The translations under genes and the position numbers were made by a program. From a virus, in UHGV virus genome UHGV-0125199: a stretch of 64,000 nucleotides of DNA; one strand, written 5' to 3'. Position 1 is the first letter of the stretch. Each line of letters opens with the position of its first letter. Below the pieces are notes generated by a model, which ran no database searches, had not been told where the DNA came from, and worked only from the letters and a program-made list of their open reading frames with translations. Shown here in pieces: positions 3,419 through 37,932 of this stretch.

Positions 3419-3450
3419 GGAGAGCTGTGCTGCTCTCCTATTTTTGTATT
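3419..3450 (+). terminator. rho-independent terminator
   Basis: GGAGAGC-tgtgct-GCTCTCC hairpin followed by TATTTTTGTATTT. Confidence 0.6.
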
Positions 3451-3451
3451 T

Positions 3452-3523
3452 GGCTCCATGGTCAAGAGGCTAAGACATCGCCCCTTCACGGAGGTAACAC
3501 TGGTTCAATTCCAGTTGGAGTCA
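3452..3523 (+). tRNA. tRNA-Glu(UUC)-like gene with an atypical anticodon arm (possibly a pseudo-tRNA)
   Basis: 72-nt cloverleaf that aligns position by position with Firmicutes tRNA-Glu. Acceptor GGCTCCA/TGGAGTC, 3-bp D-stem GTC/GAC, T-arm ACTGG-TTCAATT-CCAGT, discriminator A. The anticodon loop is CCTTCAC (C33 instead of the near-universal U33) and the anticodon stem has a G-A mismatch. Confidence 0.6.
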
Positions 3524-3600
3524 TTATTATATTCCGGCTTTCAAAAGAAATGCCGGTTTCATATCGGCAGAAAATAGAAAAAAGAAAGCGAGGGAAAATA

Positions 3601-4518
3601 ATGGTAACATTACAGAAAATTGGTGGTGACATGAATCGTAATGTATTAGAGATTACTGGATTATCTACAGACGAAAAACCTGTTGAATTTATCGAAACAA
3701 CATACATTACCAATGGAAGCACATATGAAGAAATTGATACTGGTACAGTGTATAAATATAACGAATCTGGCAAGAAATGGATAGAGCAACCTGCAATTGG
3801 TGGTTCAGGCGGAAATATTTCTCTTGATTATACTGCATTAACAAATAAGCCACAAATTTCCGGAATTGAATTAACTGGAAATAAAACCTTGGATGATCTT
3901 GGTATTCAGAAAAAAGGTACTTATATTACAAAAGAAACTGATCCAACTGTACCGGCATGGGCGAAAACTGAAGCAAAACCGACATATACCGCAGACGAAG
4001 TTGGAGCCTTACCAAAAACTACGACTACACTTCCAAATCCTAAAAAGATTAAATTTACAGGTGCAGTAACAGATGAGTATGACGGTTCTGTCGAAAAAAC
4101 AATTAACATTCCGACAGGAAGTTCTTATACTCTTCCACAGGCAACTGATCAGGTTCTTGGTGGTGTGAAAGCAAAAGCAAAGACAAACGAAACCGTAGAA
4201 GTTGCAATTGATACTACAACAGGCAAATTATTCGTCCCGGCTTATCCAACTGGTGCAGGAGCTGAACTTGACAAAACACTTGCTGTGGAAGGAAAAGCTG
4301 CGGATGCAAAAGCTGTTGGAGATGCATTGAAAACTAAGATTGGATCCGATGCTCTTGCACCATATATGAAGACAGTTGATGCAGATAAAAAGTATGCATT
4401 AAAAACTGAATTACCACAAAAGGGAGTTGCTGTCGCAGACGCTGGAGATGCAGATGTCAAAGATAAATTAAATGCTTTGTTGGCAAGTCTCAGAACTGCT
4501 GGGATTATTGCTCAGTAA
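3601..4518 (+). CDS. phage fibre-repeat protein (tail/head fibre-like)
   Basis: The ORF-track start at 3427 overlaps the terminator and tRNA, so the start is moved to ATG 3601 (GAGGG SD). Contains TYTLPQATDQVLGGVKAKAK (phage tail-fibre-repeat-like) and a C-terminal ...NALLASLRTAGIIAQ motif shared with the ORF at 17808. Confidence 0.55.
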   Translation: MVTLQKIGGDMNRNVLEITGLSTDEKPVEFIETTYITNGSTYEEIDTGTVYKYNESGKKWIEQPAIGGSGGNISLDYTALTNKPQISGIELTGNKTLDDLGIQKKGTYITKETDPTVPAWAKTEAKPTYTADEVGALPKTTTTLPNPKKIKFTGAVTDEYDGSVEKTINIPTGSSYTLPQATDQVLGGVKAKAKTNETVEVAIDTTTGKLFVPAYPTGAGAELDKTLAVEGKAADAKAVGDALKTKIGSDALAPYMKTVDADKKYALKTELPQKGVAVADAGDADVKDKLNALLASLRTAGIIAQ

Positions 4519-4558: not shown

Positions 4559-4628
4559 GCTTGGATAGTTTAATGGAAAACGATTGACTTGTAATCAATT
4601 GTTCCCAGTTCAAATCTGGGTCTGAGCT
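4559..4628 (+). tRNA. tRNA-Thr (anticodon UGU)
   Basis: Acceptor GCTTGGA/TCTGAGC (two G-U pairs), D-arm GTTT..AAAC, anticodon arm ATTGA-CTTGTAA-TCAAT, T-arm CCCAG-TTCAAAT-CTGGG. No encoded CCA. Confidence 0.8.
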
Positions 4629-4669: not shown

Positions 4670-5710
4670 TTGTCAGAAGAAAAATCAACAAGAAGTCTAA
4701 CGATAACAACACCAAAAGACACGACCTCTGTTAAAAAAATACGATATTCCAAAACAGATGAACCAGATTTTTATAAATGTACAGTTTGTGGGACACCGTA
4801 TAAAAACTTAGATGGCAATTTTCCTGCATCTCAAAGCGAATTATACTCTGGATGGGATTATCATATTTCAACATGTAGAAAATGTCTTGACAGATTGTTT
4901 GAACATTATACCGAAGCTTATGGTGGAGATGAAGATATGGCAATACGTATAATTTGTCAAAAATATGATATTTATTACGATGTAAGCCTATTAAACGCAA
5001 GTAGAAAAATTACAAAAACAAGATCTCGAATCCATAATTACATTTCGAAATCTAACTTACGACAGTATGCGGGAAAAACTTTTGATACAACATTAGATGA
5101 AGAAAGAAAGGGCAATGTAATTGAAAACATTGATGATTTAAAAGAAAATAAATCAAAAATAAGAATAAAGACTGTAAAATTTTGGGGAACAGGTTTTACA
5201 GATGATGACTATGATTATTTGCAAGAGCAATATGACGATTGGACAAGTCGTCATGAGTGTAAAACTAAAACACAAGAAGAAGTATTTAAAAGAATTTGTT
5301 TCAAACAGCTAGAGATACTAAAAACCACTCGTGCAGGAAAAGATACAAAAGAACTTGATAAAACATTTCAAAATTATCTTGATACAGCTAATCTAAAACC
5401 ATGTCAGAACACGAATGCATTATCAGATGCACAAACTCTTGGAACGTTAATCCAAAAATGGGAAAATGAAAAACCTCTTCCGGATATTGATCCAGAATTA
5501 GAAGACGTAGATAAAATTGGATTATATATCGATGTATTTTTCAAAGGTCATTTAGCAAAAATGATGGGATTAAAAAATGGATTATCTAATTTGTATAATA
5601 AATTTATGAAAAAATATACCGTTGAAAAACCAGAATATAAAGATGACGAAAATAATGAAGCACTTTTTGATGCTATTTTCGGAAATGATGAGAAATTTGA
5701 GGATTTTTAA
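4670..5710 (+). CDS. hypothetical zinc-finger protein (CxxC...CxxC); possible small terminase or packaging accessory protein
   Basis: 346 aa, TTG start after a GAAGGG SD. Immediately upstream of the terminase large subunit. Zinc-ribbon motif CTVCGTP...CRKC. Confidence 0.45.
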   Translation: MSEEKSTRSLTITTPKDTTSVKKIRYSKTDEPDFYKCTVCGTPYKNLDGNFPASQSELYSGWDYHISTCRKCLDRLFEHYTEAYGGDEDMAIRIICQKYDIYYDVSLLNASRKITKTRSRIHNYISKSNLRQYAGKTFDTTLDEERKGNVIENIDDLKENKSKIRIKTVKFWGTGFTDDDYDYLQEQYDDWTSRHECKTKTQEEVFKRICFKQLEILKTTRAGKDTKELDKTFQNYLDTANLKPCQNTNALSDAQTLGTLIQKWENEKPLPDIDPELEDVDKIGLYIDVFFKGHLAKMMGLKNGLSNLYNKFMKKYTVEKPEYKDDENNEALFDAIFGNDEKFEDF

Positions 5711-5929
5711 ATGGCTACATTGAGAAAAATGACAGAACAAGAAGTTGCAAATGAGAAAGCAGAAAGGTTAATGAACGGTATTGCTTATTGGGCAGCTTTT
5801 TACAGAAAAAACCCACAACGTTTTTGTAAAGATTATTTAAATATAACTCTCAAATTATTCCAAAAGATATTGCTATATGCAATGATGTGCAATAATTATT
5901 TTATGTATATTGCCTCTCGTGGACAGGGT
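5711..5929 (+). CDS. terL: terminase large subunit, exon 1
   Basis: N-terminal TerL-like sequence (...[13 protein letters not shown]...[12 protein letters not shown]...IASRGQG) ending in the first half of a Walker A motif. The frame runs into an in-intron stop at 5933. Confidence 0.7.
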
Positions 5930-6960
5930 TTGTAAAAATATCACGAGTGGAGGAAATAACAAATGAGTAAATATGTTTACAATAAAGATTATTTCGAAAA
6001 AATTAACACATCAGAAAAAGCATATTGGCTAGGTTTTTTATATGCAGATGGATGTATTACAAGATTTTATAAGGGAGAAGTATTAAAATCTATGTCTTTA
6101 GAAATTACTTTAAAAGACGCAGATTGTGAACATCTTATTAAATTTAAAAACGCTTTAGAAAGTAATATTCCTATTCAACATAGAATTATTACCGGGAAAT
6201 ATAAAGCAGATAGAATAGTTGTTAATTGCACAAAAATATGTAATGATTTAATCAAATTAGGTTGTACTCCGACTAAAAGTCTAACATTAGAATTTCCTAT
6301 AAAAGATATAATACCTCAAGATTTTATAAGAGACTTTATTAGAGGTTATTTTGATGGAGATGGTGGTGTATCTTATACTGAAGGTAAATATTATAATAAT
6401 GCTAGAAAAAAATATTACAAACAGCATCACTATCGATGCTATTTTTGTGGAAACATACAATTTTTAACTGAATTAAAAAAAATATTGAATTCTAATGGAA
6501 TTAAAACATCTGATCTAAAAAAAGACAATAGAAGTAATGCAATTAATATTTATATATATGGAAGAGAAAATATAGAGAAATTTAAAAATTATATATATAC
6601 AGAGGGGTGTGTGAACTTATCAAGAAAATTTGATAAGTTCTTTTTTATTTCCCACAATAGCGATCTTCATATAAATAGATAACGCCATGTTTAGCCCTGT
6701 CTAAATTGGGGAAAATCGGTGAAGACTAAATTTATTTAAAATATAAAATAAATATGTTAATACCGAGATAACTTAATAGATTTCGTAAGGCTATTAAGCA
6801 TTGTAGAGAGTAGAGATTGAATAAATATAATATCTCCAAGAGTCCCCAACTACATTATTGTAGAAAATGTACTCCAAGCTGAGTTGGAAATGACCAACTG
6901 ATGAAAATGAAGGAAACTTCCAGAGCATAGGATAAAAAACCTATGGTTAATAACATACTG
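5930..6960 (+). mobile_element. group I self-splicing intron (1031 nt) inside terL, carrying a homing endonuclease gene
   Basis: 5' exon ends in U (5929). An internal guide sequence GCCCTG at 6694-6699 can pair with the exon end CAGGGT, giving a U-G pair at the splice site. P-like AAATTGGGGAAAATCGG, R-like GTGAAGACTAAA and S-like CAAGAGTCCCC elements are present. The terminal (omega) G is at 6960. Joining the exons reconstitutes the Walker A motif ASRGQG|KT. Confidence 0.7.
5963..6682 (+). CDS. LAGLIDADG-family homing endonuclease (two-motif)
   Basis: 239 aa. LGFLYADGC and RGYFDGDGGV match the two LAGLIDADG motifs. GGAGG SD. Sits in the P1 loop of the intron. Confidence 0.85.
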   Translation: MSKYVYNKDYFEKINTSEKAYWLGFLYADGCITRFYKGEVLKSMSLEITLKDADCEHLIKFKNALESNIPIQHRIITGKYKADRIVVNCTKICNDLIKLGCTPTKSLTLEFPIKDIIPQDFIRDFIRGYFDGDGGVSYTEGKYYNNARKKYYKQHHYRCYFCGNIQFLTELKKILNSNGIKTSDLKKDNRSNAINIYIYGRENIEKFKNYIYTEGCVNLSRKFDKFFFISHNSDLHINR

Positions 6961-8493
6961 AAAACATGGCTTACTGCTCTATTCTGCGTCGTTCGTTGCA
7001 TATTATTCCCAGGAAGCAAGATATGCATTGCTTCTTCAACAAGACCACAAGCGAATCAAGTCCTTTTGAAAATAACCGATGATTTTTGTAAAAACTATGG
7101 ATGGGGTTCAGATAATTTGAATAATGAAATAGGGTACAAATCAGTTGGTGCGAATAATGCGGTGATTGAATTTAAAAATGGGTCATGGATAAGAGTTGTA
7201 ACTGCATCTGACAGTGGACGAGGCGCACGTGCAAATATTCTAATTGTAGACGAATTTCGTATGGTTGATTTAAATGTTATTAATACTGTTCTTAGAAAAT
7301 TCTTAACAGCTCCGCGCACCCCAGGATATTTAAATATAAAAAAATATTCTCATCTAACTGAGCGTAATAAAGAAATATTTATGTCCAGCGCATGGTATAA
7401 ATCTCATTGGTCATTTGAAAAAGCGAAAGCATATGTCGTGAATTTTTTAGATAATAGTAAAAAATATTTTATTTGCGGACTACCGTATCAAATAGCAATC
7501 AAAGAAAATTTATTATCAAAAGAACAGGTTGAAGATGAATTTTCTGAGCAAGACTTTGATCAAACATCTTTTGATATGGAGATGGGATGTTTATGGTTTG
7601 GTGATACGGACGGTTCGTTTTTTACATTTGATGATTTATCTAAATGTAGAAAAATAAAAACACCGATGGAGACACATTTTTTCAAAAATAAAAAAATACC
7701 AGACTTAGCCCTTAATGAAAAAAGAATTATGTCTGTAGATATTGCATTAATGGGTTCTAGTAAATCAAAGAATAATGATGCAAGTTCAATTTTAATTAAT
7801 AGTGCTCTTCCAACAGAAAGCAATGAGTACATTTCAAATATTGTATTCTTAGAAAATCATGAAGGACTTACAACTGACGAATTAGGAATTATTGTCATGA
7901 GATTGTTCTATAGGTATAAATGTACAGATTTGGTAATCGATACAAATGGAGCCGGTTTAGGTGTATATGATTTTATTATAAAGAATCAGTTAGATCAAGA
8001 AACAGGTGATGTGTATAAAGCTCTTACTTGTTGTAATGATAAAGACATGGCAGAAAGATGTAAAGTCGAATCGGCAAATCCATGTATATGGTCGATAAAA
8101 GCCAATGCTGCTTTTAATAACGAGATGTGTGTTATGCTTCGTGCAGGAATACAAAATGGGAAGATCAATCTTCTTGTATCAGAATTTGAAGCAGAGGAAA
8201 TATTAAGAGACAAGATTAAGTCATATTCAAAGATGCAATCTTTTGAACAATTAAAATATAAAACACCATATATTCAAACAACATTGCTGATATATGAACT
8301 CATAAATTTACAGCATAAGATAGAAGGAACAAACATTAAAATAAAGGAAAAATCTGGTATGAGAAAAGATAGATATAGTTCTTTGGGATATAATTATCAC
8401 ATATTAAGAACATTAGAAAAAAATCTTAACACAGATTCTTATTCTTCAGATTTTTCAAATTTTACCCCATGTATTTCTTCTATATCATTTTAG
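6961..8493 (+). CDS. terL: terminase large subunit, exon 2
   Basis: Begins KTWLTALF (second half of the Walker A motif). ILIVDEFRMVD Walker B / DE motif. C-terminal nuclease-like region. Spliced product about 584 aa. The Met at 6943 called by the ORF track lies inside the intron. Confidence 0.75.
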   Translation, partial: KTWLTALFCVVRCILFPGSKICIASSTRPQANQVLLKITDDFCKNYGWGSDNLNNEIGYKSVGANNAVIEFKNGSWIRVVTASDSGRGARANILIVDEFRMVDLNVINTVLRKFLTAPRTPGYLNIKKYSHLTERNKEIFMSSAWYKSHWSFEKAKAYVVNFLDNSKKYFICGLPYQIAIKENLLSKEQVEDEFSEQDFDQTSFDMEMGCLWFGDTDGSFFTFDDLSKCRKIKTPMETHFFKNKKIPDLALNEKRIMSVDIALMGSSKSKNNDASSILINSALPTESNEYISNIVFLENHEGLTTDELGIIVMRLFYRYKCTDLVIDTNGAGLGVYDFIIKNQLDQETGDVYKALTCCNDKDMAERCKVESANPCIWSIKANAAFNNEMCVMLRAGIQNGKINLLVSEFEAEEILRDKIKSYSKMQSFEQLKYKTPYIQTTLLIYELINLQHKIEGTNIKIKEKSGMRKDRYSSLGYNYHILRTLEKNLNTDSYSSDFSNFTPCISSISF

Positions 8494-27668: not shown

Positions 27669-27881
27669 ATGAAGTTAGGTAAAAAAGGATCCATACATAC
27701 AAAAGAGGAGGTAAGACATATGGCAGTCTCAATGGCAGTTGTACCGTTATTAAAAGGGGAAGCGGCTACTAAAATCGTAGATGATTTTAAAAGCAGCAAA
27801 TTAAAACCATTTACAGACGATCAACGTAAGAAGACTAATGCTAAAGTAGCTGAGATACTCAAAGGTAAACGTAATGGATAA
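27669..27881 (+). CDS. small protein overlapping the GNAT gene (candidate antitoxin/regulator)
   Basis: 70 aa from ATG 27669 (AAGGGGTGA SD). Its stop overlaps the GNAT start by 8 nt. Confidence 0.4.
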   Translation: MKLGKKGSIHTKEEVRHMAVSMAVVPLLKGEAATKIVDDFKSSKLKPFTDDQRKKTNAKVAEILKGKRNG

Positions 27882-28431
27882 CACAGAAAACTTTCAATAT
27901 AAAGAAGAGTTACTAAGCAAAGAGTCATTAAGACATTTTATGTTAGTAGGTGATTTTTGCTGTGGTGCAGACAATCCATTAAATACTTTCTTATCAGATG
28001 ATGCATTTGATTATGCAGAAGAAAAGCAAGGACACACATACATTTTAATGGACAACGAATACACTTGTATACTAGCATTTTACACAATTAAGGCTAATGC
28101 AATTCATACATTTAATATAGATACAAACGAATATATGGCGTTGCCTGTTGTGGAAATAGCAAGAATTGCTGTAGATTTTGACTTCCAAGGGAATGGTTTA
28201 GGGAAAATATTATTTTATGATTATATAATACCTAAAATAAAAAAAGTAAGTAAGATTATTGCAATATATGGTATCATTGTATTTGTAGAATCGGAAAATG
28301 GTCAAGGAATACAATTTTATAATTCACTAGGATTTAAAAGAGCCAATAATGAAATACAAAAAGCAGTTGGTGATTCTTATAACGAAAAATGTGAATTGTA
28401 TGTGCTGAAATTAGATGATATAAAAGAGTAG
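27874..28431 (+). CDS. GNAT-family N-acetyltransferase
   Basis: 185 aa. VEIARIAVDFDFQGNGLGKIL matches the acetyl-CoA-binding R/QxxGxG/A motif with the preceding beta strand. Confidence 0.7.
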   Translation: MDNTENFQYKEELLSKESLRHFMLVGDFCCGADNPLNTFLSDDAFDYAEEKQGHTYILMDNEYTCILAFYTIKANAIHTFNIDTNEYMALPVVEIARIAVDFDFQGNGLGKILFYDYIIPKIKKVSKIIAIYGIIVFVESENGQGIQFYNSLGFKRANNEIQKAVGDSYNEKCELYVLKLDDIKE

Positions 28432-30907: not shown

Positions 30908-33900
30908 TTGGATTTTGCAAAAGAATTCAATAAGCTGGGTAAGAATTCAAATATTGATAATATAGTTTCTCAATTTAAAGAGGTGGATTCTAGTGTTGTT
31001 GATATGGCAAAGTCTGTAAAAGATGGTTCTATGTCAATGGATGAGTTCATTGAAAAATCTACAAAAGCTACAACTACCTCTTCTAAATTCAGTAGAATGG
31101 CAAAAACTGCTGGTACCGCACTGAAGTCAATTGGTGCTACTGCTCTGAATATGTTTGGTGGTTTTCTTATTGCTGAGGGGCTTAGTCTTGCAATAAAAGG
31201 AATTTATAATCTTATAAACGCAGACAAGATTGCAATTGAAAATGGGGAAAAGGCTCAACAGGAAATTAAGGAAGTATTTGATACTTACAACGGAAAAGTC
31301 GATACGATTAAAACGCTAGGAAAGAAATTTGCCCAAGATGCAGATTCAATCAAGACCACAGGTGATGCCGTAGAATCACTAACTAAAAAATATGCAGAAC
31401 TTAGAAAAGGTGTCAGTTCAGATAATACAAATCTTACTCTTTCTGAAAAGGAATACCAGGACTATCTTGACATAAGCAATCAATTAGCTGAATCATTCCC
31501 ATCACTTGTATCTGGTAGTGATGCAGCCGGAAATTCTATTTTAAATTTAGGTGACAATGCGTCTGTTGCCGCTGACAAAATGGAAAAACTGCAAAAAACA
31601 CAAATGACGTTGGCTCATAATGATATTGTTGATAAATCAAGAGATACATTTAGGGGTGCATTTGAAAAAGCAGACAATATTGAAGATGAGATAAAATCAT
31701 TAAAAGGTCAAGAAAAACAATTAAAAGAATCTGCTTCTCAAATATCTTTAAGCCGAGATGAAATCAGAGAACAGCTTAAAAGTGGACATCTTATCTTCAA
31801 GGATATGTCTAAAACCGACGCAGACAAGATGGAAAAGGCACTTGGAGCATATGTCGGGAAAGAATTGGGTCGTGTCAGACGGTCTGACGTATCTTTGGAT
31901 GGTCACACTATTGACAGAATCGAATTTACAATTGATCCTGTAGTAGATGAGAACAAACTTAATGAAGCAACTGATATGATTGAGGCTAGAGTTTTAGCTG
32001 GAGAAGATGAGATTGCAGCTAAAAAAGGTGAAATACAATCCAATATTAAAGCACAAGAACAAAAGCAAAAAGAAGTCTGGAATAGTTTTGCTGAAAGCAC
32101 AGTAAAACCTTATCTTGAAACATCTGCTGCTATTTCTGATATGCCTGTTGAATTACTTAATGCAGTAGAAAGTAATTTACAGAATTTAGATTGGAAAAAA
32201 CTTTATAAAGAATACGGCGGAGATGCCGATCAGATGCTTTTGGATGAATTAGTTTCGCCGCTAAACAGTCTAGAAAAACCGGCACAAGAAGCTTTGACAA
32301 AGGCTCTTAGTTTAGACCCATCAACAATGTCTATTGCTGAATATAATAAAGCTATTGACTCTGCTTTGAAGGAAGTTTCTGATAACAAAGCAACCAGAAA
32401 AGAATGGAAAAATAGATTCTTTAAATCTGCTATCGATTCTGCAACTGAAGATGCTAATGCATTAAAAGAGCAGTTTAAAGGCATAGATAAAGAGATCGAC
32501 AACTTAAGCGGAGAAGACAGGGAGTTAGCATACCAAATTGCTATTGAGGATGAGGATTTCGACGGAACTTGGCAAGATGTAATGGACAAGATTAAGACCA
32601 TGAAAGAAGAAGCCGAAAATCCGATGACATTCAATCTTGGTACATTTACATCAGAAGTTGGAGATGCGATTGCTTTAATTGATACATTAAATGCTGCTCT
32701 TGCAAATAGTTATTCTGGAAAAGGATTAAGCGTATCTTATGAAGTAGACGAAGAAACTGGTGTTGTACAGTTAACTGGAGACATCGCAAATCTTCAAGCA
32801 GCTTATTCAGATTTAGAAGGATATGATCCATCTATTCTATTCGAAAGAACAGCAAATGGTGTACATATTAACAGAGAAGCTCTTAGACAATTACAGGCTC
32901 AAGAAGAAGCTTTGAACAAGTCTAAATGGCTCGAAGACGAAAAGAATCTTACAGATCAATTAGCAGTGGCTACCAACAAATTAGCAAATGCAAAGAATTC
33001 TGGAAGTGAATCTGATGTTGCGTCCGCACAAGCAACCGTGGATTCATTACAACAACAGTTGGAGCAAGTTCAATTGTTGTCAGCTGCATATGACGGAGCC
33101 ACTTCTGCATATCAGCAATGGATAAATGTACAATCATCTGGTGAAGATGGAGATATGTATAGAAACGTCTCTGAAACTATGAAAACAAGGGGCGATGCGT
33201 TATACAAAGAAGGTCGATATAATACAGAAGAATTTCGTGCAATTGCCGACTACTTCTCCAATGAAGATTTGTCTACTGCACCAATGGAAAAACTTGTTGC
33301 TGCTTATGAAAATGCTGCTAATGCAAGAGAAAGATACTTTACCGGGAATAAACAGGGTATTGATAATTTCATGGCTGATATGCAAAATGATGCAGAATTA
33401 ATGTCAAAAGGGATTGTCAAAACACTTGAAGACGGAACTATGGAATTCCAAACTGGTTCAGATAAAATATTGGCTGATAAATTCCATCTTAGCGAAGAAG
33501 CAATTCAATCTATTTTAAGAGCTGCATCAGAATATGATGATGGTATAAAAATAGGTAAAATTGACGGTTCAGAAGACTTTAATGCATCTATTGATGAAAT
33601 GAAATCAAAAGCTGACGAAGCAAAAGGCAAACTTGAAGAATTAAAGAATGCTGGAAATCAGAGTCTGGATTTAGATTTTAATTTCGATAGTACAGACTTA
33701 GAAGATTTAGATAGTCAGATTGAACGTGCAAAATCTAATCTTGATCAATTCAAAAATTCAGATGGTCAGATTGATTTAAATGTCGAAGGCGCTCAAGAAG
33801 CTGTTACAATTTTACAAACCCTTATTCAGCAAAAGATTATGGTGAGCCAGCCGGCAATTATGACAATTGACACGACTGGACTTGATGAAGCTACTGCTGA

Positions 33901-36727
33901 TACGGTTTCTAAGTTGCAAGAATTTCAAGAGCAATTAAACACTGTTAATTCATTAGAGATGCAACAAGATTTTGGAATTCAAGTAGACACTAACCAACTT
34001 GACGCTGCGAAGGCTAAGGCTCAAGAATTATTCTCAGAATTGCAAGGAAAATCAGAAGATGGTTCACTTGAAATTACACCAGATGTAAAAGTTGATACAG
34101 GATCAATGGAGTCATTGGAGCAAAGTTTGTCTTCTATGACGCCTGAAATAAAAGCAAAAATTGTTCCAGATGGAAATGTATCTGATACTCTGGTTACTGG
34201 TGATATTAAGGTTGAAGACCAGACTGCAAAGGTAGATTATGTAAGAGGAAGCCAAGAAGCTCCTGCTGACAGAACTGCTTCTGTTGATTATATTAAAAAG
34301 GGCACAACACAAATTGAACCTGCCGACAAGAGTGCTGCTGTAACTTATAGTAAGATTGGCGGAGAACAAGCACCTCCATCGGACAAGAACGCAAATGTTA
34401 ATTATAAAAAAGGGGAACAAGAAGCACCGAGTAAGAAAAATGCAGTTGTCGATTATAAACGTGGATCACAAGAATTGCCTGATTCACCTAAAAGTGCAAC
34501 TGTTAATTATACTCTTGGAAATGTTGCTACTCCACCAGACGCTTATGTAAAAGTACACTATGATACATCCGGAAAACCAAAAGGTAGTAGTCCAGCCAAT
34601 GGTACTGCTCATTCACAAGGAAGTGCCAACTCTGGTCATGCATTTTCTAGTGGATCGTGGGGATTAAAACAACCTGAAAAGGGCGCTCTGATAAATGAAT
34701 TAGGTGCAGAAATTATTGTCAGAAATGGACAGTGGTTTGTAGAAAATAATGGATATCCTACTATCACTAATCTCAAAAAGAATGATATCGTGTTCAATCA
34801 TGAACAATCCAAAGCTTTGTTAGAACGAGGATATGTTACTGGATCTCATGCTAAATTAGCATATGAAGGCAATTCTCATGCAAAAGGAACTGCATTTTCT
34901 GGGGGGTCTTGGACTTTTGGGAATACAGGTGGTGGAAACATTGGAGGCACCAACACTACTTCCAACAATCTCAACTCCGCATCAAATAATCTTGCCAAAG
35001 CTGCTTCTGATACTTCCAAAGCAGCATCTGATACATCCGAAGCTGCCGAGAAATTATCAGAAGCAGTATCCGGATACACGGACTGGGTTGAGGTGTTATT
35101 CAAACGCTTAGAATCACAGTATGATTTGCTGATGAGTCAAATGGAGCGTATCGCACATCTCCCAGACAAGCAACAGAAACTGTATGAGGCAATGTCTAAG
35201 AACAGTGAACTACTGAATAGGACTCAGCAAGCAATTGGGACTTATCAAAGTCATTTTGATTCTATTGTACAACAGAGTGGAATAAACCCACTTATCGTAC
35301 ATCAGATTCAGAACGGGTCTATGGATATTTCAAAATACGACCAGGATACTCAAAAAATAATCAGTGAGTTGCAGTCTTATTATGATAAGCTCGTAGACTG
35401 CAATAAACAGTACGATGACCTCTTAAATAAACAGAGTGAACTGGCGCAGACAGCATTGGATAATATTGAAGATTACATCGATATGATGACTGGAATTGAG
35501 TCCTCTGCTGTAGATTATCAGGAAGCATTACGTGAATTAGCAGCTGCAAAAGGAGAATCTGCATATTCCGATAATATGTATGGCTCTCTGCAAGAATCTA
35601 TTAAAAATCAACAGGACGTTGCAGGTAAATTACAGTCACAGATTAAATCATATCAAGATGAAATCAATAAACTCATGGCAAATGGGTATATGGCTGAATA
35701 CTCAACGGAATGGTTTGAAGCACAAGCTGCATTAAATGGATTCCGGCAAGAAGCTGCTGAAGCTGAGAAAACACTGATTGAATTACAAGATCAGTTAAGA
35801 GAACTTGATTTACTGAAACTGCAACAGGTTATTGATGAGTTAGACAGAACTGCAAAACGACTGGAAAACAATTCTGACCTTACAGAATCAAAAGGTGAAC
35901 AGGTATCTGAAAAAGATTTACAGGCACAGCTTGACAATGCAAATGCACAGATTCAGGCAAATTACGATAAGCGGAATGAACTATTAAAGGATCAGGCAAA
36001 ATATGATGTCGGTTCTGACAAATATAATGAAATTGCGGAAGAGATAGAAAAGCTCGATGACGCTATCTTTGATGCAATGGAGAACATTGAAGACCTCAAA
36101 AATAAAATCTGGGAAGTAAGATGGCAACCGTTCTTTGATGGACAGGAAGCATTAGGTGATCTGATTGACCAGACAGATGATTTAAGAGGACTTTTAAATA
36201 GTGATGCTTTTCTTGATAAGAACGGCGGTTTAACTGTAGATGGTATTGCAAATTTGTCTTTGATTAGTCAGGGTATGAATGCTGCGAAACAGCAAATCAA
36301 GAATTATCAAGAGGCATTGAAGAAGCTTGATGAGGATTTAAAGAACGGGAATATCTCAACAAGTGAATATAAGGAGCAGCAAAAAGAATTTCTCAATCAG
36401 ATTTCAAGCTCTGTTGGCGTTGTTGAAGACTACAAAGATTCTATTGTTGATCTCTATACAAAGATGCTTGAGCAAGAGAATGAAGTTGCTCAAAAATCGA
36501 TTGATAAGCAGAAGGAATTGTTGGATATCAAAAAGAAAAATGCTGATTACAATAAGACTCTGCGTAAACAGGCTAGAGATGTGAATACATTGAAAGCTCA
36601 GATTTCAGCACTCGAAGGCGTGAAGTTATTTGCGCGACTTCTATTTAATAGCGGGAAAGTCCCCACAACCCTATCTTGCTACAACGGAACTGGAAACGGT
36701 AAACGTGAATGCGGTACGAGTTTATAA
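30908..36727 (+). CDS. tail tape measure protein, main segment C (1939 aa ORF; frame open from 30815; probable exon about 30818..36676)
   Basis: Glycine-zipper hydrophobic segment AKTAGTALKSIGATALNMFGGFLIAEGLSLAIKG, more than 1000 aa of helical repeats, a conserved ...GAEIIVRNGQWF...DIVFNHEQSKAL tape-measure C-region, then a 600-aa coiled coil. TTG start in the ORF track. Confidence 0.7.
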   Translation: MDFAKEFNKLGKNSNIDNIVSQFKEVDSSVVDMAKSVKDGSMSMDEFIEKSTKATTTSSKFSRMAKTAGTALKSIGATALNMFGGFLIAEGLSLAIKGIYNLINADKIAIENGEKAQQEIKEVFDTYNGKVDTIKTLGKKFAQDADSIKTTGDAVESLTKKYAELRKGVSSDNTNLTLSEKEYQDYLDISNQLAESFPSLVSGSDAAGNSILNLGDNASVAADKMEKLQKTQMTLAHNDIVDKSRDTFRGAFEKADNIEDEIKSLKGQEKQLKESASQISLSRDEIREQLKSGHLIFKDMSKTDADKMEKALGAYVGKELGRVRRSDVSLDGHTIDRIEFTIDPVVDENKLNEATDMIEARVLAGEDEIAAKKGEIQSNIKAQEQKQKEVWNSFAESTVKPYLETSAAISDMPVELLNAVESNLQNLDWKKLYKEYGGDADQMLLDELVSPLNSLEKPAQEALTKALSLDPSTMSIAEYNKAIDSALKEVSDNKATRKEWKNRFFKSAIDSATEDANALKEQFKGIDKEIDNLSGEDRELAYQIAIEDEDFDGTWQDVMDKIKTMKEEAENPMTFNLGTFTSEVGDAIALIDTLNAALANSYSGKGLSVSYEVDEETGVVQLTGDIANLQAAYSDLEGYDPSILFERTANGVHINREALRQLQAQEEALNKSKWLEDEKNLTDQLAVATNKLANAKNSGSESDVASAQATVDSLQQQLEQVQLLSAAYDGATSAYQQWINVQSSGEDGDMYRNVSETMKTRGDALYKEGRYNTEEFRAIADYFSNEDLSTAPMEKLVAAYENAANARERYFTGNKQGIDNFMADMQNDAELMSKGIVKTLEDGTMEFQTGSDKILADKFHLSEEAIQSILRAASEYDDGIKIGKIDGSEDFNASIDEMKSKADEAKGKLEELKNAGNQSLDLDFNFDSTDLEDLDSQIERAKSNLDQFKNSDGQIDLNVEGAQEAVTILQTLIQQKIMVSQPAIMTIDTTGLDEATADTVSKLQEFQEQLNTVNSLEMQQDFGIQVDTNQLDAAKAKAQELFSELQGKSEDGSLEITPDVKVDTGSMESLEQSLSSMTPEIKAKIVPDGNVSDTLVTGDIKVEDQTAKVDYVRGSQEAPADRTASVDYIKKGTTQIEPADKSAAVTYSKIGGEQAPPSDKNANVNYKKGEQEAPSKKNAVVDYKRGSQELPDSPKSATVNYTLGNVATPPDAYVKVHYDTSGKPKGSSPANGTAHSQGSANSGHAFSSGSWGLKQPEKGALINELGAEIIVRNGQWFVENNGYPTITNLKKNDIVFNHEQSKALLERGYVTGSHAKLAYEGNSHAKGTAFSGGSWTFGNTGGGNIGGTNTTSNNLNSASNNLAKAASDTSKAASDTSEAAEKLSEAVSGYTDWVEVLFKRLESQYDLLMSQMERIAHLPDKQQKLYEAMSKNSELLNRTQQAIGTYQSHFDSIVQQSGINPLIVHQIQNGSMDISKYDQDTQKIISELQSYYDKLVDCNKQYDDLLNKQSELAQTALDNIEDYIDMMTGIESSAVDYQEALRELAAAKGESAYSDNMYGSLQESIKNQQDVAGKLQSQIKSYQDEINKLMANGYMAEYSTEWFEAQAALNGFRQEAAEAEKTLIELQDQLRELDLLKLQQVIDELDRTAKRLENNSDLTESKGEQVSEKDLQAQLDNANAQIQANYDKRNELLKDQAKYDVGSDKYNEIAEEIEKLDDAIFDAMENIEDLKNKIWEVRWQPFFDGQEALGDLIDQTDDLRGLLNSDAFLDKNGGLTVDGIANLSLISQGMNAAKQQIKNYQEALKKLDEDLKNGNISTSEYKEQQKEFLNQISSSVGVVEDYKDSIVDLYTKMLEQENEVAQKSIDKQKELLDIKKKNADYNKTLRKQARDVNTLKAQISALEGVKLFARLLFNSGKVPTTLSCYNGTGNGKRECGTSL

Positions 36728-37330
36728 CTCAACAGTCTTCGGATAGAAACCATAAAAAACAGATAGGTCAGGGATAACCGGGTGTGCAAGTCACCCAGAC
36801 GCAACGAACTTCCTAAGTCATATATGATTTATGATATGGAAGACGCTCAACGACTGGTAAGTCCTATATATTATAATATGTAGGCATAGGGTTACAAGCG
36901 ATTGGTAACTCGAAAAATATAGACTATTTGAATAAGAAATGAAATGAACAATTAAATATGATATATGTTATAATTAAGATACATCTATGATGCACTTATG
37001 AATACAAGAACGTATGTTTTGTATATATTTAACAATTGTAAACATATCACTTTGTTTGTATTTTGTGTAGAATTTTCTCCGTATATGGGATATAATAATA
37101 ACAAGAAAACAGCAGTGTTTTCTTAAATATATCTGGTGTGATGCAGCGTAATATGACTGCTATAAATAATCTTTGAAGTGTACGCCGGGTTAGGAACCGG
37201 TTTACATGGAGATTTACAAAGGTGCGAGGATTTACCATAGCCTAACTAGGAACTATGTTCTGAAAGAAAGTCCTTGAATGAATAGAAGGGTCATCACCAG
37301 TGACTCTTCTATTTTTATACCAAGGAGAAG

Positions 37331-37932
37331 TTATGGATAATATATCATTGGCACTAAATAATTTCAAAGAATTGATGAATTGCAATTATGATTTTATAAT
37401 AGTTTGTAATAAGCAAAAATCAGATATAAAACTTACATTTGAATCAAAAGATTTTTATCATTTAGTAGGGTTTCAATACTTAAAAGATATAGACATCCCT
37501 AAAAATGAAAAACAGTTATTTAAAAAAATAGAATCTCTTAAGATTACTGATGAGTATTTAGGCAAAAGTGTGTTTTATACAAAAGTGGATTACAGCTATG
37601 CAAATGTAAAAGAACGAATTTCCGGATTTAAAGATGTTGATAAATTTATAGAAAACAAAAATATTATATGTAGATATATAAAAACTAATAACCCTTCATC
37701 GGCTATAAAAGCGGATTATTTAATAAAAAGTACTTTATATAACAGAACGGCATATATGTTTTTGAGAAAAAGAAGCAAAGGAGATGAATATTGTATGTGT
37801 TCATTTTTTATGCAACCACAAAATGAATATATAGGTCAAAAAACATATTGGTTGTATAAAGCCAAAAAACGTATATCGGACAATTATGTTAAAATATTGT
37901 TAGATAGAATATCGGAATCCACAGAGCAGTAA
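37331..37932 (+). CDS. intron-located ORF of unknown family (candidate homing endonuclease)
   Basis: 200 aa from ATG 37331 (AAGGAGAAG SD). Sits between the R and S elements. No LAGLIDADG, GIY-YIG, HNH or Vsr motif recognised. Followed by the terminator at 37924-37958. Confidence 0.45.

Follow-up and report, generated by a model that had tools for sequence, protein, structure and literature searches.

Organization of the terL locus

The window, the 64,000-nt stretch of DNA that was analysed, comes from an SPbeta-like (pro)phage, apparently one of Mediterraneibacter gnavus. Its gene for the terminase large subunit, terL, lies in two pieces with an intervening sequence between them, and this sequence contains an open reading frame for a LAGLIDADG homing endonuclease (Table 1). 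A YonG-like gene at 4670-5710 (phrog_3314; PF27269/PF27316 in relatives) is located upstream of terL, and an ORF in the portal position is located downstream. The identification of the product as a TerL of the SPbeta YonF type is supported by colinearity, an intact Walker A motif and this terminase gene neighbourhood.

The final codon of the first piece, GGT (5927-5929), is followed by TTG and TAA. An in-frame stop just inside the intron is general in phage group I introns (PMC2504315). An earlier reading, made from the sequence only, had proposed that terL is split by a group I intron with a LAGLIDADG endonuclease. The fold, the covariation, the empty site and the homology described below all argue for this proposal.

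Table 1. Coordinates of the features at the split terL locus
Feature	Position	Strand	Remarks
terL exon 1	5711-5929	+	ATG 5711; 73 codons; ends ...IASRGQG; last base U5929
Hairpin enclosing 5' splice site	5916-5947	+	CUCGUG 5916-5921 / CACGAG 5942-5947
Putative group I intron	5930-6960	+	1031 nt; 26.7% G+C
In-frame UAA	5933-5935	+	stops exon 1 translation two codons into intron
GGAGG ribosome-binding site of endonuclease	5949-5953	+	9 nt before ATG; read from sequence
LAGLIDADG homing endonuclease gene	5963-6682	+	239 aa; motifs LGFLYADG and GYFDGDGG; in P1 loop
Terminator-like hairpin and T-run	6613-6650	+	12 bp; inside 3' end of endonuclease ORF
Internal guide sequence	6687-6699	+	P10 strand AUGUUU 6687-6692, A6693, P1 strand GCCCUG 6694-6699
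P3 5' strand and P4-P6 domain	6706-6802	+	P3 5' strand 6706-6711; predicted fold and covariation
P4	6716-6721/6761-6766	+	4 pairs with compensatory changes
P5	6724-6726/6756-6758	+	
P5a	6730-6737/6746-6753	+	
P6	6767-6769/6800-6802	+	proximal P6 also covaries
P6a	6772-6779/6791-6798	+	8 pairs with compensatory changes
GUAA loop	closed by C6784-G6789	+	GNRA varies (GUAA, GAAA, GCAA) among relatives
Catalytic core	6806-6875	+	P7, P7.1, P3 3' strand, P8, J8/7
P7	6806, 6808-6812/6870-6875	+	G6806, bulged A6807; 3/6 pairs with compensatory changes
P7.1	6813-6817/6832-6836	+	5/5 compensatory; conserved loop UGAAUAAAUAUAAU
P3 3' strand	6844-6849	+	P3: 6/6 pairs with compensatory changes
P8	6850-6854/6859-6863	+	5/5 pairs with compensatory changes
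J8/7	6864-6869	+	6 nt
P9 domain and 3' end	6879-6960	+	P9 6879-6881/6921-6923
P9a	6882-6887/6894-6899	+	
P9b	6909-6912/6917-6920	+	GAAA loop
P9.1	6926-6931/6940-6945	+	
terL exon 2	6961-8493	+	510 codons and stop; begins AAA ACA TGG CTT (KTWLTALF)

Boundaries of the putative intron and the TerL product

Near-isogenic intron-less phages set the intron boundaries to the base. The empty site in these phages reads GGTCAGGGT joined to AAAACATGG, and in L032 it reads TTGCAAGTCGTGGTCAGGGT joined to AAAACATGGCTTACTGC. In phages L032-L035, exactly 5930-6960 is missing. Their terL is 98.6-98.7% identical to that of the window, and the 1-kb flanks are 99.7-100% identical. With this comparison, a shift of the boundaries by even one base is impossible. 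The empty site also fixed the 3' boundary at G6960, a terminal G that had been read from the sequence, and all aligned relatives likewise end in G.

Joining the exons gives a TerL of 583 aa (1752 nt including the stop) on recount, not the 584 aa originally given. As the exon ends had suggested, the Walker A motif SRGQGKT is restored, with the junction between the last Gly and the Lys. Exon 1 is colinear with the intron-less TerL proteins P0001 and P0243 and with SPbeta YonF. Uninterrupted homologues run straight across the Gly-Lys junction: P0001 has 97% amino acid identity and P0243 differs at 3 of 583 residues. SPbeta YonF and the TerL of phiCD211 are 47% and 37% identical to the joined protein over the full length, and ASRGxGK is invariant. 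A comparison with intron-less TerL proteins, which had been suggested as a check, thus places the junction between G and K in P0001, P0243, YonF and phiCD211. The joined protein scored 29.3 bits against Pfam Terminase_6N (cutoff 22; profile positions 1-214), and exon 2 alone scored 18 bits, which is below the cutoff. The exons of the window and L032 have 24 nucleotide differences that result in only 3 amino acid differences; judging by sequence, the terL exons are under selection.

An exact look-up of the 583-aa spliced protein found no entry in the protein collection. The window-type ligated junction, TCTCGTGGACAGGGTAAAACATGGC, had 0 matches in an exact search of metagenome and viral contigs, and this search found no contig with the window-type exon 1 fused straight to exon 2.

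Structure and covariation of the predicted ribozyme

The whole ribozyme (6687-6960) sits 3' of the endonuclease ORF. It has the group I topology, with a P3/P7 pseudoknot and a P4-P6 domain with an A-rich J3/4. The lack of a P2 helix in the window intron counts against the assignment. The P-, R- and S-like elements noticed in the sequence-only reading correspond to real helices, P4 and P7. The consensus structure has 13 helices with 71 pairs in total. Across 18 related introns, 96.2% of the pair cells were paired, compared to 33-44% for slid controls, and 45 of the 71 pairs had changed on both sides. The covariation score was 0.505, compared to at most 0.094, and none of 500 shuffles reached the observed values. 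The window copy forms all the pairs of each consensus helix. The G6808-C6874 pair beside the bulged A6807 is invariant (18/18), and the 6806-6875 pair covaries. This predicted P7 geometry, with its pair and bulge, fits the known guanosine-binding site.

The guide sequence is complementary to both exons. Its P1 strand pairs with CAGGGU (5924-5929), which leaves a U5929·G6694 wobble at the splice site, and this is the 6-bp P1 helix originally proposed. The P10 strand, directly 5' of the P1 strand, pairs with AAACAU (6962-6967). The P10 pairing was added in the present analysis. Among composition-matched random 23-mers, 1.2% contain a P1-like 6-bp match by chance, and the frequency falls to 2.75e-5 for a P1 with an adjoining 6-bp P10.

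P1 was found in all 8 aligned terL-site relatives. It is invariant in this family because the GQG codons constrain it, and it therefore adds nothing to the covariation signal. In P10, by covariation, the pairing follows the codons of exon 2 (AUGUUU/AAACAU, AAGUUU/AAACUU, AGGUUU/AAACCU and GGAAC-UUUU/AAAAcGUUCC), and it is weak or offset in L020 and L028. The 9-bp P10 of L030 was read by hand. An extra insertion in the P9.1 region of L030 misaligns its 3' end in alignment A2, which results in lower P10 and P9.1 counts there. L029 diverges most among the terL-site relatives and was excluded from the P1 and P10 counts; its guide is GCC only with no convincing P1, and it has a P2. CACGAG (5942-5947) was considered as an alternative P1 strand and rejected, as it pairs 8 nt upstream of the junction and excludes U5929.

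This same CACGAG forms the intron strand of a hairpin that encloses the 5' splice site. The hairpin crosses P1, so it would be either an alternative structure or part of a pseudoknot. It is found in the minimum free energy fold of 7 of the 10 relatives folded (window included), and its intron strand tracks the exon codons (AGUCGUG/CAUGAUU, CGAGAG/CUCUCG, CGCGG/CCGCG and AGCCGUG/CAUGGCU). It adjoins the endonuclease ribosome-binding site and could act as a switch that couples endonuclease translation and splicing to terL translation.

The endonuclease gene

The endonuclease ORF lies between the 5' splice site and the guide sequence and thus in the P1 loop, as had been proposed. Its product matches Pfam PF14528 LAGLIDADG_3 with 45.5 bits (cutoff 22.5; E 9.4e-12) and the PHROG 4645 endonuclease with an E of 1.6e-49. 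Residues D29, G30 and D131-G134, which include the acidic residues D29, D131 and D133, are invariant in 11 endonuclease homologues. A PDB sequence search with the endonuclease gave no solved structure at E <= 0.01. The terminator-like hairpin persists in L016, in L028, where a synonymous change compensates, and partly in L017. It is absent in L020, L027, L029 and L030.

Database searches for the intron

An Infernal search with Rfam RF00028 had been proposed as a check of the group I assignment. When it was run on 5600-7200 and on 6680-6975, there was no match at E <= 10, and only chance snoRNA-like matches appeared. Control introns were searched as well. RF00028 also misses the introns of JCL1032, AR9, CpeS-1181, cr6_1 and phiR1-37. 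For the T4 td and nrdB introns its scores are 40.3 and 35.7 bits, which fall short of its own threshold of 50 bits. Since annotated relatives are missed too and even T4 td is below threshold, the negative result says little. It reflects a limit of the model and not a defining feature of the group I class.

A scan of the whole window at Rfam gathering thresholds found only two tRNAs and a drum RNA. Further copies of the intron in the window were looked for with a motif search, which gave 11 matches compared to 7.9 expected, only the known site being exact. Self-searches of the window with tblastn and blastn found no second copy.

Distribution and alleles

Nine further SPbeta-like contigs have the same intron and LAGLIDADG gene at the same terL site. 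The endonuclease homologues at this site range from 79% down to 50% identity. Four IMG/VR contigs of 33-166 kb hold the intron at 99.7-99.9% identity, and IMG/VR dataset 3300045988 holds both intron-bearing and empty alleles. The differences from the empty allele concentrate around the insertion, within the first ~500 nt of terL. Such clustering is the pattern that co-conversion would leave, and together with the coexistence of the two alleles it lends indirect support to a site-specific cut of the intron-less allele by the endonuclease. Near-isogenic intron-bearing and intron-less phages in the same samples provide a natural system in which homing and intron-mediated competition between gut phages could be measured.

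Interpretation and alternative explanations

We conclude that 5930-6960 is very probably a mobile group I intron that belongs to the IA-like phage family of the JCL1032 terL intron and lies between the Gly and Lys codons of Walker A. We infer its splicing catalysis, the activity and target of its endonuclease, and homing, and propose the following mechanism. terL would be transcribed as a precursor, and ribosomes on exon 1 would halt at the in-frame UAA, while the endonuclease would be translated from its own ribosome-binding site within the P1 loop. Once the ribozyme is transcribed, the guide would pair with the end of exon 1 to form P1, and an external guanosine bound in P7 would attack after U5929. 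P10 would then align exon 2, G6960 would enter the G site, and the exons would be ligated. The mRNA junction would be GGACAGGGU followed by AAAACAUGG, which would encode the 583-aa TerL with an intact P-loop. On the DNA level, the LAGLIDADG enzyme would cut intron-less terL at GGT/AAAACA in co-resident phages, and repair from the intron-bearing copy would bring the intron, together with neighbouring exon sequence, into the cut allele. A cut close to the insertion point that leaves 4-nt 3' overhangs would be typical of this enzyme family.

A very improbable alternative is that a free-standing homing endonuclease gene was inserted into terL and that the two halves, of 74 aa and 516 aa, assemble unspliced. 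The ORF at 6943-8493 opens with an in-frame ATG that has AGGA upstream, so it could in principle start exon 2 independently, and in relatives the pieces are treated as separate genes by gene callers and in GenBank. However, ATG 6943 is not conserved, being absent in L018 and followed by a stop in L028, and in the window it is part of the 3' strand of P9.1, with the AGGA in the 5' strand. The break falls within the P-loop (GQG/KT), and the 278 nt that separate the ORF from exon 2 take on a group I core fold with covariation. A split gene would also have no need for a guide that pairs with both exon ends or for a P10 that tracks exon 2 codons.

The element could also be a decayed, non-splicing relic in a defective prophage, in which case terL would be a pseudogene here. 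The failure of RF00028 to recognise the RNA would suit such a relic, as would a terminator-like hairpin upstream of the ribozyme. We consider it very improbable nonetheless, given the fully paired helices of the window copy, the intact endonuclease ORF and exons, the 3 amino acid differences for 24 nucleotide differences between the exons and the empty allele, and the near-identical copies in the four IMG/VR contigs. Other intervening elements can carry similar proteins: inteins often contain LAGLIDADG_3 domains, and some group II introns have LAGLIDADG ORFs. The chance that the insert is one of these is negligible. It is out of frame, given the UAA at 5933-5935, and its ORF comes with a separate ribosome-binding site and ATG, which excludes an intein. 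A group II intron was rejected because the insert lacks a GUGYG 5' end, domain V/VI and a reverse transcriptase and does not match RF00029. The covarying fold, moreover, has group I topology, against either element.

A mobile group I intron at this site has good support and is an ordinary case of a known sort of mobile element, and it leaves the understanding of group I introns unchanged. It does matter for annotation. Public records list the terL of these gut phages and prophages in three parts: a 'hypothetical protein' of 74 aa, an endonuclease and a truncated 'terminase family protein'. Once the intron is recognised, the packaging ATPase is complete again. The standard Rfam model does not detect the phage group I intron family of Lactobacillus, Staphylococcus, Clostridium, crAss-like and SPbeta-like phages, and surveys based on this model will undercount it.

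More tentatively, the ribozyme family may be specialised for P-loop codons. The guide, a U-run followed by GCC..., complements GGU/AAA(A), the Gly-Lys codons of Walker A, and family members are found exactly at the Gly-Lys junction in three ATPase genes: the TerL of SPbeta-like phages, the TerL of JCL1032 and the helicases of crAss-like phages. Due to this match, RNA-level target recognition (reverse splicing) and not the endonuclease could drive spread between unrelated genes. We regard this idea as rather unlikely, and give no better odds to the separate proposal that the hairpin at the 5' splice site is a switch.

Comparison with known systems

Homologues of the intron that carry a group I annotation or have been published as such are those of JCL1032 terL, the AR9 topoisomerase and ROSA. 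Relatives of the JCL1032 and ROSA introns have been published as group I IA1/IA2, and the Bacillus cereus prophage intron term-IVS1 matches JCL1032 (Table 3 in PMC2504315). The intron in terL of Lactobacillus delbrueckii phage JCL1032 (NC_019456, annotated join) is of the same ribozyme family, with 80% identity over 90 nt. It aligns helix for helix with the window from P3 to P9.1, with compensatory changes. It also splits Walker A between Gly and Lys (RKNG/KTT), has no P2, and has the same guide layout of a U-run for P10 followed by GCC... for P1. In contrast, it is only 226 nt long and ORF-less, with an 8-nt P1 loop, and its P9 is a single hairpin where the window has a three-way junction. 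The two TerL proteins are alignable only around the motif, and not at the DNA level. The 3' part of the intron in topoisomerase II of Bacillus phage AR9 (annotated join) is 96% identical to 6878-6954.

Within the phage collection, the Clostridium perfringens phage vB_CpeS-1181 (MW478292) best matches the 3' two-thirds of the ribozyme, with 79.8% identity over ~200 nt from P6 to P9.1. Its terL intervening sequence is annotated as two terL CDS and a hypothetical protein. It likewise bears an ORF, but in the P5 loop instead of the P1 loop, has a P2 hairpin, and is inserted at a different terL position outside the P-loop.

The T4 td intron, which encodes I-TevI and is the classic mobile member of group I (IA2), has the same mechanism as the one proposed here, with a P1 U·G and a terminal G (PMC3984707). 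Both introns have an insertion of the P7.1 type separating P7 from P3', a stop codon soon after the intron begins, and an endonuclease ORF in a peripheral loop, whose product drives homing in td and would do so here. They differ in that I-TevI belongs to the GIY-YIG enzymes, its ORF lies in P6a, td has a P2, and RF00028 matches td with an E of 9e-8 and gives no match in the window. The terL introns of Bastillevirinae, which we liken to this one by description, are group I and mostly IA-like, often with a nuclease ORF in a long loop that separates parts of the ribozyme. They were found with RF00028 and GISSD models and mostly carry HNH or VSR-like nucleases; a LAGLIDADG enzyme was seen once in these phages, in a DNA polymerase intron (PMC11878797).

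Structure of the interrupted terL gene

The sequence-only reading had proposed that terL is split by a group I intron, with exon 1 ending in SRGQG and exon 2 opening with KTWLTALF. Both exon ends were re-read in the sequence and agree with this layout, but the joined product has 583 aa rather than the 584 claimed. Uninterrupted homologues of this conceptual spliced protein number in the thousands and are 580-593 aa long. Bacillus phage SPbeta YonF (47% identity) and Clostridioides phage phiCD211 TerL (37%) both align without a gap across ASRGQG/KTWL, and the G/K junction held in this comparison with intron-less TerL. An uninterrupted homologue with 97% aa identity, P0001, has a gene of 1752 nt, exactly the length of exon 1 plus exon 2. 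Four near-isogenic phage contigs without the intron (L032-L035) are 99.7-100% identical to the window in the 1-kb flanks and 98.6-98.7% in terL. The segment missing from them is exactly 5930-6960, and their empty site reads GGTCAGGGT followed directly by AAAACATGG. If the intron boundary is moved by one base, either way, this site is not regenerated. We take the placement of the predicted splice junction to be exact.

Where the intron-bearing and empty alleles differ, they do so mostly within the first ~500 nt of terL, close to the insertion. Over 5711-6200 there are 4, 2, 6, 4 and 2 differences per 100 nt, and about 0 beyond that. This cluster looks like a co-conversion tract, as would be expected from homing. 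In IMG/VR, the intron junction is found on five contigs and the empty site on three, and dataset 3300045988 holds both alleles.

From its gene order (YonG-like, TerL, portal position) and its homologies, the phage is SPbeta-like. Peptides that differ little from exon 1 and share its 90%-identity cluster go by the name 'hypothetical protein' in Mediterraneibacter gnavus records. One such variant occurs on 656 contigs, among them a 3.57-Mb chromosome, and a 475-aa 'terminase family protein' adjoins one copy. It follows from these records that the intron is common in M. gnavus prophages and unannotated there.

Other features of the window were noted. Two tRNA genes (3452-3523 and 4559-4628) lie just 5' of the YonG-like gene, and the first is overlapped by a mechanical ORF, 3427-4518. 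A drum RNA (RF02958, 66 bits) at 37168-37278 is directly followed by an ORF (37300-37932) with a PBECR4 domain, a phage Barnase-EndoU-ColicinE5/D-RelE-like nuclease domain. The 256-aa ORF 26020-26790 matches only the C-terminal half of PhageMin_Tail/tape-measure profiles. It stands apart from the 1939-aa ORF 30908-36727, with a GNAT acetyltransferase ORF (27874-28431) between them, and could be part of another interrupted gene.

Secondary structure and covariation

A secondary structure was derived by reading the window against related phage introns, and it is that of a complete group I intron. The final G claimed for the intron is present.

Features of the terL intron and its exons
Feature	Position	Strand	Remarks
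terL exon 1	5711-5929	+	ATG 5711 to GGT 5927-5929; 73 codons, ...YIASRGQG; TTG TAA next
P1	5924-5929 / 6694-6699	+	U5929·G6694
GGAGG	5949-5953	+	upstream of endonuclease ORF
Endonuclease ORF	5963-6682	+	239 codons
P10	6687-6692 / 6962-6967	+	guide strand with exon 2 start
J1/3			UCUAAA; P2 absent
P3	6706-6711 / 6844-6849	+	
J3/4			AAAA
P4	6716-6721 / 6761-6766	+	
P5	6724-6726 / 6756-6758	+	
P5a	6730-6737 / 6746-6753	+	
P6	6767-6769 / 6800-6802	+	
P6a	6772-6779 / 6791-6798	+	capped by GNRA loop
J6/7			GUA
P7	6806, 6808-6812 / 6870-6875	+	bulge A6807
P7.1	6813-6817 / 6832-6836	+	
P8	6850-6854 / 6859-6863	+	
J8/7			AAAAUG
P9	6879-6881 / 6921-6923	+	three-way junction with P9a, P9b
P9a	6882-6887 / 6894-6899	+	
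P9b	6909-6912 / 6917-6920	+	GAAA loop
P9.1	6926-6931 / 6940-6945	+	
Intron 3' end	6960	+	terminal guanosine, G6960
terL exon 2	6961-8493	+	KTWLTALF...; stop 8491-8493

P3 and P7 cross to form a pseudoknot, a typical feature of group I introns. Covariation was tested with an alignment of 18 related introns (A2), using partners slid by 1-3 columns and 500 shuffles as controls. Standard pairs occupy 96.2% of 1080 pair cells, compared to 33-44% in the slid controls, and both partners change in 45 of the 71 pairs. A covariation score of 0.505 compares with at most 0.094 in the slid controls, and none of the 500 shuffles matched any observed measure. The pair adjoining the bulge, G6808-C6874, is invariant in A2 and would fit a guanosine-binding site. 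The window RNA alone also folds better than its shuffles (z = -2.99).

Pairing of the intron with its exons

The P1 proposed earlier, in which GCCCTG complements CAGGGT and the junction pair is U·G, was recovered. The same intron with a LAGLIDADG gene is found at the same terL position on nine further SPbeta-like contigs, with endonucleases 50-79% and introns 67-82% identical to those of the window. P1 is invariant among these terL-site relatives because the GQG codons fix it, and P10 co-varies with the codons of exon 2. The guide and exon 2 strands are AUGUUU and AAACAU in the window, AAGUUU and AAACUU in L016 and L017, AGGUUU and AAACCU in L018, and GGAAC-UUUU and AAAAcGUUCC in L030. This covariation indicates selection for base pairing of the intron RNA with the exon that follows it, and among the sequence-only evidence for splicing it is the strongest. 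Among composition-matched random 23-mers, a P1-like match directly next to a P10-like one has a frequency of 2.75e-5.

CUCGUG (5916-5921) in exon 1 pairs with CACGAG (5942-5947) in the intron, forming a hairpin whose loop contains the 5' splice site. This hairpin crosses P1 and stops 1 nt short of the endonuclease ribosome-binding site. In relatives, the intron strand follows the exon codons (e.g., CGAGAG/CUCUCG, CGCGG/CCGCG and AGCCGUG/CAUGGCU). It may serve to couple endonuclease translation or to present the splice site.

The endonuclease ORF

As the sequence-only reading had placed it, the ORF occupies the P1 loop: all of it falls after the 5' splice site and before the guide sequence. It matches Pfam LAGLIDADG_3 (45.5 bits) and PHROG 4645 'endonuclease' (E 1.6e-49). 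The acidic residues of both LAGLIDADG motifs, LGFLYADG and GYFDGDGG, are invariant in 11 homologues, and on this basis a monomeric two-motif enzyme is predicted. Relatives place their ORFs differently. CpeS-1181, ROSA and phiCDKH02 have it in the P5 loop, and in cr6_1 and Lbo-JY46 it reaches from the P1 loop into the core. These varied positions are consistent with separate ORF invasions of one ribozyme family.

Upstream of the ribozyme, the 3' end of the ORF contains a terminator-like hairpin (12 bp plus a T-run, 6613-6650). This hairpin is retained in L016, L028 and partly L017, with a synonymous compensatory change in L028 (UUAUCA/UGAUAA to UUGUCA/UGACAA), and is absent in relatives L020, L027, L029 and L030. 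Two relatives, L017 (300-1094) and L020 (327-1052), carry a free-standing GIY-YIG endonuclease gene just 5' of the yonG-like gene, and the window has none at that place.

Alternatives to splicing

The two halves of terL could instead be translated separately with no splicing. However, ATG 6943 is part of the P9.1 helix (3' strand), L018 lacks it and in L028 a stop comes right after it, and the break falls within the P-loop. A split gene would also leave the covarying ribozyme and guide sequence unexplained. Another possible explanation is that the intron is a decayed relic, but the window copy shows pairing in every helix and has intact ORFs, and its exons are under purifying selection. The 24 nt differences between the window terL and L032 result in only three amino-acid changes. 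An intein and a group II intron were excluded by sequence. We conclude that the group I intron proposed in terL is real and that its interpretation is supported, with catalysis, endonuclease activity and homing as predictions.

Related ribozymes and known introns

A search with the Rfam group I model RF00028, suggested earlier as a check, gave no match in the window at E <= 10. None of five relatives (L001, L006, L007, L008 and L009) matched either, and two of these, JCL1032 and AR9, have their introns annotated. In phage T4 (L031), RF00028 scored td at 40.3 bits and nrdB at 35.7 bits, both below its 50-bit threshold. The model is functional but does not reach this intron family, and surveys relying on it will miss the family. 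The missing match is recorded as such, yet carries no weight against the mechanism.

By blastn, 6683-6975 matched 33 records in the phage collection, and in nearly all of those inspected the match lies in an unannotated gap within a split gene. These genes encode TerL (Clostridium phage vB_CpeS-1181, Lactobacillus phage JCL1032 and Staphylococcus phage vB-SscS-F1), topoisomerase (Bacillus phage AR9 and Yersinia phage phiR1-37), helicase (crAss-like phages cr6_1 and cr118_1), DNA polymerase (a Leptolyngbya phage) and structural proteins (Staphylococcus phage ROSA and Clostridioides phage phiCDKH02). For JCL1032 terL and AR9 topoisomerase II, the annotation gives a joined CDS. Family members sit exactly between the Walker A Gly and Lys codons of three different ATPase genes: the SPbeta-like terL of the window, JCL1032 terL (L006 1446-1671) and the crAss-like phage helicases (cr118_1, L015 1356-1692; cr6_1, L008). 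The contexts are RKNG/KTT (JCL1032) and GSG/KSS, with GQG/KT in the window. The guide sequence, a U-run then GCC, complements GGU/AAA.

Phage terL group I introns are already documented (PMC2504315, PMC11878797, PMC3984707). The more interesting sides of this one are the gap in the Rfam model, the recurrence of the family at the Walker A G/K site in unrelated ATPases and the covarying 5'-splice-site hairpin. Tourasse and Kolstø assign group I introns in the terminase genes of Bacillus cereus prophages to IA1/IA2 and give JCL1032 and ROSA as matching phages (PMC2504315). In the topoisomerase/gyrase intron of the Bacillus jumbo phages AR9 and PBS1, the 3' part is 96% identical to the P9 domain of the window (6878-6954), whereas the P4-P6 domain is unlike the window's, which suggests that the ribozyme arose as a recombinant mosaic.
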